The position numbers were made by a program, and so were the translations under genes. This document shows, piece after piece, positions 1 to 4,075 of a DNA stretch of 4,131 nucleotides (the stretch's first letter is position 1; every line of letters begins with the position of its first letter). Location: the IMG/VR virus record IMGVR_UViG_2671180770_000018; one strand, written 5' to 3'. The DNA is from a virus (Duplodnaviria > Heunggongvirae > Uroviricota > Caudoviricetes). The notes beneath the pieces are model-generated. The model ran no database searches and had not been told where the DNA came from. It worked only from the letters and a program-made list of their open reading frames with translations.

Positions 1-324
1 ATGACAAAGGCTGGGATGCCAGAAAGCGTGCGTATTGCCTGAAAATCCAGCCAGCTACAGGGTCGTTCGCACGAAATCTTATTTATTCAACAAAGCCCTT
101 TTGATGTAGAAACTAAGAATGGCCTTCCCTCCACGGTTCAGCTATTTTATGAGGAATCTAAGGATAATGAACCTTTAGCGAATATACATTTTCAAGCAAT
201 AGGTTCTGGTTTTTTAACGTTTGTTAATGCCTGCCAGGAACATGATGACAACAGCTTAAAATTATTTGCTTCGCTGTTAATTTCACTTTCATATTCTAGT
301 GCCTACGCAGACTTATCAGAAACA

Positions 325-648
325 GTGTATATTAATGAAAATAATGAGAGCTACCTGAAAGCTCAGTTTGAAAAATTATCTCAACGTGATATGAAGAAGT
401 ACCTGGGAGAGATGAAGAGTCTGGCAGATGAGGGGGGAATGAAATTTGATGACTATCTGGATAAGATGTCATTTCTGGTGAATGAAGGAAAGCTCGAGCC
501 TGATATTTTAAGCAAAATGCGAGATGCTGCACCGAAATTAATTGCCTTTGCTAAGTCGTTTGACCCAAACTCAAAGGAAAAGATTAAAATACTTACAGAT
601 ACTTCTAATTTAATTTATGATTTATTCGGGGTTAAATCGGGGAAATAA
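325..648 (+). CDS. Hypothetical protein, helical and K/E/L-rich, start codon unresolved (frame open from nt 43)
   Basis: Frame +1 is open from nt 43 to the TAA at 646-648 (201 codons) but has no ATG/GTG/TTG before the GTG at 325, which is where the track ORF starts. No convincing Shine-Dalgarno precedes 325 (agaaaca). The translation is protein-like across the whole open stretch (e.g. YLKAQFEKLSQRDMKKYLGEMKSLADEGG). A hairpin plus T-tract follows at 686-720. No family recognised. Confidence 0.45.
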   Translation: MYINENNESYLKAQFEKLSQRDMKKYLGEMKSLADEGGMKFDDYLDKMSFLVNEGKLEPDILSKMRDAAPKLIAFAKSFDPNSKEKIKILTDTSNLIYDLFGVKSGK

Positions 649-928: not shown

Positions 929-1369
929 ACCCCGCTATTGAGCCTCCTTCACAGTGATGCTGAATAACATAACTCAATGATATATCGATAAAATAATCTC
1001 TACATTTGAAAATGCACGGTAATTCTGAAATGCAAAAAATCAACCAAACCAGCGCAATGCCTGAAAAAACTGACGTTCACTGGAGTGGTCGGTTTAGCGT
1101 TGCACCAATGCTCGATAGGATGTACCGTTTTTGAAAAACAAGTAGTTATACACTTTGTGGGAGCCTATTGGGAACCTGTTATTCTTAGAAAGCATCATTT
1201 GCTCATCACTTCAATTGACCATGGTTAAAGCCAGCTATAAACTTGACAAACGAGGTAACTGGTTGCTTAGGCCCAAGTGGGCACACCATAAGAAGCTCAT
1301 GTTGGTGATGAAGCAACCCATGAAGTATCGAGAATAATTATAAAGTTCACTATCTTTGAGGTTTCTTAT

Positions 1370-1942
1370 ATGTTTTGCGAAGAAAAAGTAGCTCAAATGG
1401 CTGCATACCTACTTCTTAAGAGAGGTGGGCGCATGGCATATCTGAAATTGATGAAGCTGCTCTATCTGTCTAACCGCCAGTCGATTTTGAAGCATGGCAG
1501 GATGATCGGCGAAGATAGCCTTTACTCTATGAAATTTGGACCAGTCATGTCGAATACGCTGAACTTGATTCGCGGTAAGGCTGAAGGCATTGGTGACTAC
1601 TGGTACAACTTGATAGAGACGAACGGGCATAATGTATCGTTGCGTTCAGATCCGAGGGAAATGGATGCAGACGAGGTCTTTGATGAATTGAGTCGTGCAG
1701 ATATCCGGATTTTAGATGAAATCTATTCTCGGTATGGGCATATGAACCGATTTGATCTCGCAAATATGACGCATTTAGAAAGCGTTTGTCCAGAGTGGCA
1801 CGATCCTGGCAATTCTCGTAAGCCTATAGACCTGAAAGAAATGCTGATCAGTGAGGGTAAAAGCGAGGATGAGGCTAATCGCATAATTGGCAAAATGGAA
1901 GAATCTCAGAAACTTAAGGAATTTTCTTTGCAATTATCATGA
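1370..1942 (+). CDS. Panacea-domain (DUF4065; GepA/SocA/PanA-like) protein, putative antitoxin
   Basis: ATG at 1370 with GAGG at 1358-1361 and an 8-nt spacer; 190 aa. The N-terminal two thirds carry what I recognise as the Panacea/DUF4065 hallmark: LKLMKLLYLSNRQSILKHGRMIGEDSLYSMKFGPVMSNTL, then YWYNLIE, then HLESVCPEWHD. The C-terminal 35 residues are an acidic, probably helical tail. The TGA stop at 1940-1942 overlaps the next ATG (ATGA). Confidence 0.85.
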   Translation: MFCEEKVAQMAAYLLLKRGGRMAYLKLMKLLYLSNRQSILKHGRMIGEDSLYSMKFGPVMSNTLNLIRGKAEGIGDYWYNLIETNGHNVSLRSDPREMDADEVFDELSRADIRILDEIYSRYGHMNRFDLANMTHLESVCPEWHDPGNSRKPIDLKEMLISEGKSEDEANRIIGKMEESQKLKEFSLQLS

Positions 1943-2358
1943 CGGATTATCAGCCATACAGGAAAGGAACTGTGCTTGCCCCAACTGGACCATGCAATCA
2001 TCTTCATGTGATTTGTAATGATCCTGTTTATTACCCCGTTAACGATTGTTATTGTGTTTTAGTTGTTAATATTTCTAGTATCAAGGATGGTGTCCCCCAC
2101 GATCCGTCTTGCGTCTTGAATTCTGGTGATCATCGCTTTATCAAGCATCCAAGTTATGTTGTTTACGCTGAAGCTATAATTTGGCGAGTGGATAACATGG
2201 TTAGAAAGCAGCGATCGGGTGAGATTTCTGTTCATGATGATATGCCAGAAGCTACATTCAATAGAATTCTGGACGGTTTTGATATCTCTGATGAAGTTAC
2301 GCCAAAGAACCTTAAATTTAAAAATAAATATTGCGTATCATCTATTGATGATGAGTAA
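1939..2358 (+). CDS. Hypothetical protein translationally coupled to the Panacea gene; candidate toxin/effector with possible MazF/PemK-like fold
   Basis: ATG at 1939-1941 overlaps the upstream stop by 4 nt and has no Shine-Dalgarno of its own (nearest AAGGA is at 1916-1920, too far), which implies coupled translation; 139 aa, TAA at 2356-2358. By-eye similarity to MazF/PemK/Kid toxins: KGTVLAP near the N-terminus, CYCVLVVNISS (cf. MazF CLCVPCTTQ), VLNSGDH (cf. VVLSGQER), AIIWRVDN (cf. SIAWRARG), MPEATFNRILDGF (cf. APEELQLIKAKI). The N-terminal half is also rich in Cys/His. The fold assignment is unverified. Confidence 0.7.
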   Translation: MTDYQPYRKGTVLAPTGPCNHLHVICNDPVYYPVNDCYCVLVVNISSIKDGVPHDPSCVLNSGDHRFIKHPSYVVYAEAIIWRVDNMVRKQRSGEISVHDDMPEATFNRILDGFDISDEVTPKNLKFKNKYCVSSIDDE

Positions 2359-2397: not shown

Positions 2398-2571
2398 ATG
2401 GAAGATCAAAAAGCAACCAAGCCACAGGTTAAGTTCGACACAATGAAAGCATTCGTAGGTATGGGTGCTGCTGTTGAAGTTCTGATGAAGGCTGCTCCTA
2501 ATGCGTTCACTCACGCTACTGTCTCTGGTAAAGAGCAGCAGGGTAAGCTTCGTCGTCTCAAAGCAGCATGA
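2398..2571 (+). CDS. Small hypothetical protein (57 aa), below the ORF track cutoff
   Basis: ATG at 2398 preceded by GGAG at 2388-2391 with a 6-nt spacer; open frame to TGA at 2569-2571. Translation: MEDQKATKPQVKFDTMKAFVGMGAAVEVLMKAAPNAFTHATVSGKEQQGKLRRLKAA. Codon choice (ggt, gct, cgt, ctg, aaa) looks like an expressed enterobacterial gene. A strong terminator begins 20 nt after the stop. The overlapping track ORF 2219-2446 is in another frame and lacks these signals. Confidence 0.5.
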   Translation: MEDQKATKPQVKFDTMKAFVGMGAAVEVLMKAAPNAFTHATVSGKEQQGKLRRLKAA

Positions 2572-2590
2572 TCATAGCTGGTGCTTTTTG

Positions 2591-2619
2591 AAAACCCGCC
2601 TTCAGGCGGGTTTTTTCTT
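2591..2619 (+). terminator. Rho-independent terminator, plus-strand oriented, possibly weakly bidirectional
   Basis: aaaacccgcc (2591-2600), loop ttca, ggcgggtttt (2605-2614): a perfect 10-bp stem with a GC-rich core, followed on the plus strand by a T-tract (ttttttcttt, 2611-2620). On the minus strand the hairpin is followed by caaaaag, so termination of the minus-strand operon here should be inefficient. Confidence 0.8.
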
Positions 2620-2900
2620 TAGTGATTTTCTTTGCCCTTCTGTTTGACTGTTCTGACCTGTTCCCACTCGATACGTCCTTCTTCTCGCCTTTTGTCTATG
2701 TATTCCGCAAGATCCTGAATATTGATGCAACGTTTTGCTTTTTGTGATGTGCCGATGCGATATGTTGGAACGGGCAACTTACAAGCGTTTGCTTTTGCTT
2801 CTGCCGTGGCTGGACTCATACCAAAGTACTTTTGGCTAACTGCTGAGAGTTCAATGTTTGGGGTATTGAATTCAGCCATCAGTAAAAACAAGGTGTTCAT
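2619..2900 (-). CDS. PrtN-family small DNA-binding protein (pyocin-activator-like; excisionase-like in enterobacterial prophages)
   Basis: The track ORF is 2619-2927, but the most plausible start is the third in-frame ATG at 2900-2898, which has GGAG (2910-2907) and a 6-nt spacer. The product then begins MNTLFLLMAEF and contains IQDLAEYIDKRREEG, both of which I recognise as PrtN-family features. TAA stop at 2621-2619. Confidence 0.7.
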   Translation of the reverse strand: MNTLFLLMAEFNTPNIELSAVSQKYFGMSPATAEAKANACKLPVPTYRIGTSQKAKRCINIQDLAEYIDKRREEGRIEWEQVRTVKQKGKENH

Positions 2901-2936
2901 AATTTTCTCCATCAAAACCGGCTGCACCCGGGAAAA

Positions 2937-3509
2937 TCATAATTCTGTGCTGGTGGCAGGAATTAATTTCTGCCAGATAGCGGAAACATATTTTGCCTGA
3001 TGACGGGCATCAGCCAGGGCGTTGTGCCGTTCGCCATCGAAAGGCATGTCCATTTTGGGGTCGAATCCGATGGAACGCCCAAGCGTAACGATCGTGCGTA
3101 CATCGTGGTCATTCCAGTATGCCCACGGGCAGATTTGTCCTGCTCGCTCATAAGCTCCACGTAAAATTACGTTGTCGAAGGTGGCTCCGTTACCCCAGAC
3201 TTTTAAATATTTCGTATTGTCTGCGTGCCGGTTAATGAAATGATTTAGTTCTGAGAGAGCATCGCTGATCGACAAAGTATCATCAATACAGATTGCAGCT
3301 CGTGCTTCAGGGCTTTGTTTCAACCACCACAGGATGGTATCGCCGTCAGGTGTAGCTCCTTGCTCCATAGCACTTTCCAGGCTAACAACCGTATAGAATT
3401 CTTGTCCGATGTCTCCGATTTCTGGAGTGAAGAACACCGCGCCAATGGAAACGATCGGTGCATCCTTATTTTTCCCCATCGTCTCAAGGTCGATCATTAA
3501 GTTGTTCAT
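2937..3509 (-). CDS. DnaQ-like DEDDh 3'-5' exonuclease (phage-type)
   Basis: The track ORF starts at a GTG at 3512, but the adjacent ATG at 3509-3507 has a strong Shine-Dalgarno, GGAGGTG (3521-3515), with a 5-nt spacer. The 190-aa product shows three exonuclease motifs: IDLET (Exo I, D and E), WGNGATFDN (Exo II, D) and HNALADA (Exo III, H and D). The start shares one nucleotide with the upstream stop (TGATG). Confidence 0.85.
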   Translation of the reverse strand: MNNLMIDLETMGKNKDAPIVSIGAVFFTPEIGDIGQEFYTVVSLESAMEQGATPDGDTILWWLKQSPEARAAICIDDTLSISDALSELNHFINRHADNTKYLKVWGNGATFDNVILRGAYERAGQICPWAYWNDHDVRTIVTLGRSIGFDPKMDMPFDGERHNALADARHQAKYVSAIWQKLIPATSTEL

Positions 3510-4075
3510 CACTTCACCTCCAGCGGCGGTTCCGGTAGCGGCATCCAGTGAGTTGCTTGCTCAATACCATTACCCGGCTTAATCGTTGCATCTCCGCGCC
3601 GAAAGGTGCTTCCGGTATAGCGTGCGGAGCATATTAGCGGTTCAACCTGAGAGCTATCGAAATTCACCGAAATAAGCACGTTCTGGCCCTTTTCAGGCAT
3701 TCGATCACTACAGCTTATCCAACTATCCGGAGTTCCCGGAGAGTTGCCATTTACATCGAAGTTTGGCTCTGCGTCCTGAACTAGGAGGATGTAACCATTT
3801 TTGGCTGTATCAAGTTCTAACGCCTCGGTGACGGTACCGAAATAGCGATTACCTAAATCAACATCACAAGTGCTTACATCAATGGAAACTTCCATGCCTT
3901 CGATTAATTCTGGCAAGTTGTAAGTTTGGCTTACAGGCTCTGCTTCCAGCGATACCAGTGCAATTCGTGCCAGTTCTTCCGCTTCTTCTGCTGGCAGTAC
4001 AACGTTGCTGCCAGGTCCGTATGTTTCGCGCCACTGCTGGATTGTCAGCAGTCGCCCTTTGGTAATAGTGATCAT
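3509..4075 (-). CDS. Phage DUF551-like protein
   Basis: ATG at 4075-4073 with GAAGGA about 8 nt upstream on the minus strand; 188 aa. The C-terminus reads ATHWMPLPEPPLEVK, which matches my memory of the conserved DUF551 C-terminal motif. The TGA stop at 3511-3509 overlaps the exonuclease ATG. Confidence 0.75.
   Translation of the reverse strand: MITITKGRLLTIQQWRETYGPGSNVVLPAEEAEELARIALVSLEAEPVSQTYNLPELIEGMEVSIDVSTCDVDLGNRYFGTVTEALELDTAKNGYILLVQDAEPNFDVNGNSPGTPDSWISCSDRMPEKGQNVLISVNFDSSQVEPLICSARYTGSTFRRGDATIKPGNGIEQATHWMPLPEPPLEVK

Follow-up and report, generated by a model that had tools for sequence, protein, structure and literature searches.

A probable Panacea-partnered toxin of PanT cluster T6 with a predicted MazF-type fold, carried by an inducible dusA prophage of Escherichia coli

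Kurata et al. 2022 (PNAS 119:e2102212119, PMC8832971) surveyed the genes that adjoin DUF4065/Panacea genes and validated nine pairs of a Panacea antitoxin (PanA) and its toxin (PanT). The PanTs of Pseudomonas moraviensis and Bifidobacterium ruminantium have no CDD hits, resemble the RNases EndoA, PemK and MazF in HHpred searches and both specifically inhibit the incorporation of 35S-methionine; the P. moraviensis PanT is toxic, is neutralised by its cognate PanA and co-purifies with PanA in pull-downs (PMC8832971). MazF-like toxins neutralised by a Panacea protein were therefore already published and validated in 2022, and the pair described here, panA-panT at positions 1370-2358 of a 4,131-nucleotide stretch of the Caudoviricetes record IMGVR_UViG_2671180770_000018 (the window, meaning the whole stretch), adds a new member from an Escherichia coli prophage. 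We read the pair as a bicistronic type II toxin-antitoxin (TA) module of the PanAT class, carried as cargo by the dusA prophage Lys8385Vzw, whose toxin would be a translation-blocking RNase with a MazF fold belonging to PanT cluster T6, and we put the probability of this reading at about three in four. Set beside the PanAT pair of P. moraviensis LMG 24280 (WP_083201923.1 with PanA WP_083354365.1), the window pair has the same T6 assignment, the same antitoxin-then-toxin order and a similarly small overlap; PanA lacks an N-terminal domain and has a similar N-terminus in both, and both toxins are predicted to be MazF/PemK-like. What sets the window copy apart is its source, an E. coli dusA prophage that can be induced.

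Homologs in two strains listed under T6 place the window PanT in that published cluster. In the portion of Dataset S1 available to us, the P. moraviensis PanT WP_083201923.1 is assigned to cluster pT6/T6, and the T6 rows include Pantoea septica LMG 5345 (order A then T, -4 overlap), 'Yersiniaceae bacterium 2016Iso4' (-1 overlap), Proteus vulgaris and Pluralibacter gergoviae (PMC8832971). The toxin that we recovered from P. septica LMG 5345 is 56% identical to the window PanT and that from Chimaeribacter coloradensis 2016-Iso4 is 55% identical, with overlaps of -4 and -1, respectively, as in those rows; it is because these homologs come from T6-listed strains and have matching overlaps that we assign the window toxin to T6. 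The genome scan also gave a homolog from a Pluralibacter metagenome-assembled genome with 87% identity, and a Proteus protein (P0017) is 63% identical and has the same PanA neighbour and a -4 overlap. The PanA N-termini are likewise similar, reading MIFSEQKVAQ in P. moraviensis (from a footnote of Kurata et al.) and MFCEEKVAQ in the window. The link to the tested P. moraviensis toxin runs through shared cluster membership: that PanT was met neither in the pattern-based genome scan, for which the patterns were too specific, nor among the top 120 profile-search hits. Among the T6 rows in the available portion of Dataset S1 there is no E. coli, and the two E. coli rows listed there belong to clusters T1 and T3. 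As a separate matter, several T6 toxins of Pasteurellaceae (Histophilus, Haemophilus, Pasteurella) in the same portion of the table have the RefSeq name 'terminase', probably a propagated misannotation for proteins of ~130 aa encoded beside PanA.

The product of the upstream gene, named 'Panacea domain-containing protein' in RefSeq (WP_000458584.1), matches PF13274 (Table 1), which bears out the earlier proposal that this toxin is paired with a Panacea antitoxin in place of the MazE/PemI partner (AbrB/SpoVT- or RHH-type) of MazF-type toxins. The pairing is kept over a wide range. A PanA homolog lies directly upstream on the same strand in 30 of the 32 loci that we retrieved, the other two being truncated by contig ends, and these loci span Gamma-, Alpha- and Betaproteobacteria. 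Similarity to the window pair drops in parallel for PanA and PanT from Enterobacterales to Alpha- and Betaproteobacteria, and the PanA partners are uniformly ~184-195 aa long. The ATGA in which the panT start overlaps the panA stop suggests that the two genes are translationally coupled; a -4 overlap is found in 17 of 30 panA-panT loci and also in many T6 rows of the available portion of the Kurata et al. table. Beyond the Pfam domain, PanA continues for about 50 aa (residues 138-190) in a C-terminal extension that is conserved among its partners, with the motif PEWHDPGNSR at 141-150 and near-invariant residues E142, W143, P146, S149, R150, I153 and G163. A different PanA has a Phd-C extension (PMC10440598), and the analogy suggests that this segment could be the neutralising element. 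No DNA-binding domain was detected in PanA by family scans.

The toxin reading frame is present exactly as the original prediction described it, with the five quoted segments at residues 9-15 (KGTVLAP), 37-47 (CYCVLVVNISS), 59-65 (VLNSGDH), 79-86 (AIIWRVDN) and 102-114 (MPEATFNRILDGF). PanT exceeds E. coli MazF (111 aa) and Kid (110 aa) by 28-29 residues, close to the excess of about 25 that had been estimated, and three elements account for the additional length: an insert at residues 30-36, a helix at 84-93, and the last helix (122-131) with the tail behind it. Sequence comparison indicates that panT is a genuine, widespread conserved gene, with 62 close relatives in Enterobacterales, Vibrio and Shewanella. 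When a profile was run against 1.84 billion cluster representatives, 2,706 relatives passed E<=1e-3, of which 930 also passed E<=1e-10. Scans of panT with Pfam, NCBIfam and PADLOC gave nothing significant (the best matches, ICMT at E 0.05 and DapC aminotransferase at 17 bits, are far below cutoff), and PHROGs places it only in the uncharacterised family phrog_19071. The start codon is annotated in two ways. RefSeq/PGAP begins the protein at GTG 1972 (WP_014640052.1, 128 aa), preceded at 1958-1965 by the Shine-Dalgarno-like GGAAAGGA; the GenBank phage record MT225100 begins it at ATG 1939. We favour ATG 1939 because residues 1-11 (MTxYxPYRKGT) are kept in homologs, strand 1 of the predicted structure spans residues 10-16, the ATGA overlap recurs at other loci and MT225100 agrees. 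The RefSeq protein thus probably lacks 11 N-terminal residues, and the start codon of a common protein would be corrected.

The shortened reading frame that PGAP annotates from GTG 1972 could be taken as a sign that panT is a decayed, non-toxic remnant, or a phage protein that keeps the fold in a role other than that of a toxin, and in the available portion of the Kurata et al. data at least one PanA-associated candidate from an E. coli prophage, of cluster T1, was 'not toxic'. That candidate, however, belongs to a different cluster. The window frame is intact, as are its panA partner and the ATGA coupling, and PanT retains every residue that is invariant in the family. The region moreover matches 565 of 5,426 complete E. 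coli genomes (~10%), nearly all at 95-100% identity, with at least 80% of the 1.3-kb query present in 205 complete genomes; the matching genomes include prophages of O157:H7 and O103 Shiga toxin-producing strains. We consider a remnant or non-toxin role distinctly unlikely. Read as a TA module, a gene pair annotated as 'hypothetical' and 'Panacea domain-containing', in a region found in about a tenth of complete E. coli genomes, gains a function.

Structure prediction assigns PanT to the MazF/Kid-type fold. An AlphaFold2 model was built from a 53-sequence alignment and read as secondary structure and scores, without coordinates for superposition; it is of high confidence (mean pLDDT 90, with 116 residues scoring 90 or more; pTM 0.84), and it predicts an SH3-like barrel and a C-terminal helix (elements in Table 1). 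Three fold searches were concordant on this; among them, Foldseek against the full PDB returned only MazF entries among the top 50, the best at E 3e-3 with probability 1.00 and TM scores of 0.48 (query) and 0.60 (target), and against viral structures the top matches are named PemK-like or endoribonuclease. Neither the model nor the Foldseek search placed the protein elsewhere, and the MazF/PemK/Kid-like architecture proposed from the letters of the sequence is upheld at the level of the model. The more specific proposal, that the five segments follow the strands and C-terminal helix of MazF in order, holds for the most part: KGTVLAP corresponds to strand 1, CYCVLVVNISS to the strand at 37-47 and MPEATFNRILDGF to the helix at 104-116, AIIWRVDN covers the end of the strand at 72-83 and the start of the following helix, and VLNSGDH is not a strand, lying in an ordered loop with only a short bridge at 59-60. 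The loop spans 24 residues (48-71), is nearly devoid of regular secondary structure and is nevertheless predicted with a pLDDT of ~95. CcdB, a gyrase poison, shares the fold superfamily, and PanT could in principle act on gyrase as CcdB does and not as an RNase; we regard a CcdB-like activity as very unlikely.

Conservation was surveyed in 279 relatives, down to ~24% identity. The N-terminal half had been singled out for ten Cys/His within the first 70 residues, a count that is exact (C19, H21, H23, C26, C37, C39, H54, C58, H65 and H70), with the suggestion that they form a metal site or are incidental. Only H21, C58 and H65 are near-invariant. Of the others, H23 alternates with Phe and Tyr, Leu prevails at the position of C26, H70 is kept in ~60% of relatives and replaced in the rest mostly by Arg or Lys, and C19, C37, C39 and H54 vary freely. 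The second of the two suggestions therefore fits all but H21, C58 and H65, a dedicated metal site made from all ten was rejected since most of them are not conserved, and the Cys/His richness is largely a lineage feature. The three conserved residues join D55 in an H21/D55/C58/H65 pattern that is found in 262 of the 279 relatives (94%). Other near-invariant positions are L22, G63, F67, S72, Y76, G113 and S117; positions 46-47 are always Ser or Thr, occasionally Cys, and basic residues occupy columns 8, 9, 69, 109 (Arg or Lys in 90%) and 123.

Mean-field covariation (Meff ~224) recovered the expected sheet topology, with hairpin pairs K9-I25, G10-C26, V24-I45, I45-V74 and S46-Y73, and packed the helix at 104-116 on the sheet through C26-F114 and V24-M102. 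It sets H21 beside S47 and I48, S47 beside the invariant S72, the segment 55-58 against 118-120, and D64 against R109. In E. coli MazF, the catalytic R29 lies at the start of strand 2 and T52 at the end of strand 3, and the covariation register puts the H21/S47/S72 corner of PanT at the same corner as MazF R29/T52. The short local alignments given by hhalign fall in the structurally expected register despite probabilities below 1%: S46-S47 lies opposite T52-T53 of MazF and T46-S47 of Kid, and H21 opposite H28 of MazF, the neighbour of R29. We infer that S46/S47 stands for MazF T52 and that H21, at the start of strand 2, stands for the catalytic Arg. Two residues of loop 48-71, D55 (or Glu) and H65, may contribute.

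The same residues can be read in another way, in which PanT keeps a MazF-like scaffold without being a classical RNase. H21, D55, C58 and H65 would then form a metal site, for instance for Zn, or a Cys-His-Asp-type centre, and translation would be hit by metal-dependent cleavage, by proteolysis or by modification of a translation factor or tRNA. The near-universal tetrad together with the absence of the canonical MazF Arg speaks for such a centre, as does the confidently predicted loop 48-71, which is expected if it is held by a ligand or by tight packing, and for the T6 family it is inhibition of translation that has been shown and not RNA cleavage. Yet the tetrad residues are not lost jointly. 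Their rare deviations are uncorrelated, with D55E in six relatives, C58V in four and H65 changed to Gly or Tyr in two; the four diverged members with C58V keep the rest of the tetrad, as is more readily expected of a residue buried in the core than of one that binds metal or acts as a nucleophile, and D55E is a conservative exchange of the sort usual where a carboxylate serves in catalysis or as a ligand. Covariation likewise sets 55-58 against 118-120, away from the H21/S47/S72 corner, and all structural neighbours of known function are endoribonucleases or CcdB. A His/carboxylate/His set is, moreover, the classic equipment of metal-independent cyclising RNases of the RNase T1, barnase and YoeB types. 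On balance we consider a metal site or other centre of this kind improbable, and we retain the MazF-fold RNase as the preferred reading. A broader and quite tentative suggestion is that T6 PanTs have rebuilt the MazF scaffold, with H21, D/E55 and H65 (together with C58, S72 and Y76) replacing the Arg/Thr dyad. The outcome would be a His-based RNase that recognises new targets or, as the more radical version, a metal-dependent or non-RNase inhibitor of translation.

Under the preferred reading, panA and panT would be co-transcribed and translationally coupled, and PanA would bind PanT and neutralise it directly, as is shown for the P. moraviensis T6 relative. Free PanT would arrest growth through a specific block of translation, again as shown for that relative, and it would do so as a metal-independent endoribonuclease that cuts mRNA, tRNA or rRNA, with its active site where that of MazF lies.

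Several observations weigh against this scheme. None of the sequence profiles used here ties PanT to MazF. PF02452 (PemK_toxin) is unmatched by the window PanT, and among 113 relatives only one touches it, at E 0.11; phmmer of the window PanT and hmmsearch of the family profile against PDB sequences gave only chance-level matches, with no MazF among those of the profile; and hhalign of the family alignment against MazF, EndoA, Kid or a MazF alignment gave probabilities below 1%, although the MazF alignment was of low diversity (Neff ~2), since most of the homologs available for it were near-identical NdoA proteins. The profile-level link that HHpred reported for the T6 representative (PMC8832971) was thus not reproduced here by sequence. 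No Arg is invariant among the 279 relatives, and the place of the MazF catalytic Arg has no conserved Arg either, so that PanT may use a different chemistry; the clustering of H21, S47 and S72 is drawn from covariation among ~224 effective sequences. Toxicity, neutralisation and the translation block are carried over from the P. moraviensis relative by way of shared T6 membership, and for T6 itself Kurata et al. term RNA cleavage only 'likely', the reported activity being inhibition of translation (PMC8832971). As for a role in defence, PADLOC has no model for either PanA or PanT, and no phage-defence phenotype is documented.

Comparison with other TA systems sets the window pair apart in several respects. 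From MazF, Kid (PemK) and EndoA (PF02452; PDB 5CR2, 1M1F, 4MZM and 8ZWS), PanT differs in lacking detectable sequence-profile membership and in being 28 residues longer, and it has an invariant His where those proteins have the conserved catalytic Arg, with D55, C58 and H65 as additional invariants. The T25 PanT of B. ruminantium (WP_026646888.1) is also PanA-neutralised, translation-inhibiting and of the MazF type; T25 members are recognised by sequence as PemK/MazF through their CDD names, whereas the T6 family, the window PanT included, is not. The type III toxins ToxN, CptN and AbiQ are neutralised by a tandem-repeat RNA, unlike PanT, for which the antitoxin is a protein. A type III arrangement was rejected for the window: there is no tandem array near panT, Rfam gave no hits, and the upstream gene is protein-coding. 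With the type VI system SocAB of Caulobacter, whose SocA is the founding Panacea protein, the window pair has the Panacea/SocA antitoxin domain in common; at 14.4 bits against a cutoff of 190, the window PanA is not a member of the SocA equivalog NF047745 (NCBIfam). The SocB toxin is unrelated; its target is the beta sliding clamp, and its degradation goes through ClpXP. Since Panacea-neutralised MazF-like toxins were published in 2022, the window pair opens no new question at the level of the system. The interest that remains is in T6 chemistry, a MazF fold without the MazF catalytic Arg and with its own invariant His/Asp/Cys/His set, and in the corrected start of a common RefSeq protein.

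Table 1. Coordinates of features in the window and of elements in the modelled PanT (residue numbers where stated).
Feature	Position	Strand	Remarks
DUF2713 family gene, 3' part	1-648		PF10897, E 2e-59; frameshifted pseudogene in RM8385
5' dusA fragment (MHGNSEMQKINQTSAMPEKTDVHWSGRFSVAPMLD)	1012-1116		PGAP: partial tRNA-dihydrouridine synthase
Weak sigma-70-like promoter candidate, TTGACC-17-TAAACT	1215-1243	+	Upstream of panA; overlaps a 9-nt palindrome
panA, antitoxin, 190 aa	1370-1942	+	PF13274 (Panacea/SocA), residues 27-137, E 2.2e-19
ATGA start/stop overlap, panT/panA	1939-1942	+	Read from sequence
panT, toxin, 139 aa, ATG start	1939-2358	+	Predicted MazF/Kid-like fold; PanT cluster T6
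PanT strands (model)	residues 10-16, 19-25, 30-32, 37-47, 72-83, 97-99
PanT helices (model)	residues 84-93, 104-116, 122-131
57-codon ORF (orf57)	2398-2571		Just downstream of panT; phrog_2741, function unassigned, E 1e-34
Strong intrinsic terminator	2590-2615	+	11-bp stem with 6 G-C pairs, T-run
DUF551-domain protein	3509-4075	-	PF04448, E 2e-21

The region is 100% identical to the chromosome of E. coli O103 strain RM8385, and the induced phage Lys8385Vzw (MT225100) carries the same DNA. In RM8385, panAT is preceded by zur, the frameshifted DUF2713 gene and the 5' dusA fragment, which marks the prophage attachment site; the window is the att-proximal end of the inducible Lys8385Vzw. The pair is followed by a lambdoid early region that includes genes for a PrtN/excisionase-like protein, a 3'-5' exonuclease and DUF551, besides ea22-like genes and the cI/cro repressors. 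On the circular map of Lys8385Vzw, panA-panT lies between the integrase (int) and excisionase (xis) genes, that is, across attP, which makes the pair accessory cargo that a functional temperate phage carries at its attachment-site end. At other loci PanAT follows tail-fibre genes beside Abi_2 (Proteus) or lies between the genome end and the portal gene (Pseudomonas phage Sirocco). Because these are typical accessory or defence positions of mobile elements, a role in prophage-encoded abortive-infection defence, in prophage stabilisation or in both is plausible and, as judged from genomic position, probable.

Around the pair, the terminator would end a panA-panT(-orf57) transcript. The ORF orf57 was rejected as a third component of the module, being absent beside the pair in 32 other loci, and is probably a phage gene in its own right whose transcript ends at the same place. 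A promoter scan found 3 sites where shuffled sequences gave 4.4 on expectation, and the candidate upstream of panA is without statistical support; a search for an operator-like inverted repeat upstream of panA gave only the 9-nt palindrome, and such an operator was rejected. The DUF2713 gene belongs to the host chromosome that flanks the prophage. At the other end of the window, the DUF551-domain protein is called 'valyl-tRNA synthetase' in MT225100, which looks like a misannotation.

Two further settings of the pair were seen among the retrieved loci. In Proteus and Providencia (loci L034-L039, at 2438-3408), PanAT with 63% identity and a -4 overlap comes directly after prophage tail-fibre genes, and its flanks vary (Abi_2 or UPF0167, then a peptidase S8), as if the site were an accessory or defence island of changing content. 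Phage Sirocco (OR683410), which is P2-like, carries PanAT in the interval between the genome end and the portal gene, which we take to be a known hotspot for defence cargo. The Sirocco PanA gene lies at 929-1486 and is followed at 1501-1863 by an unannotated PanT homolog that is 48% identical to the window toxin; in its place the record annotates a 135-nt ORF on the opposite strand.

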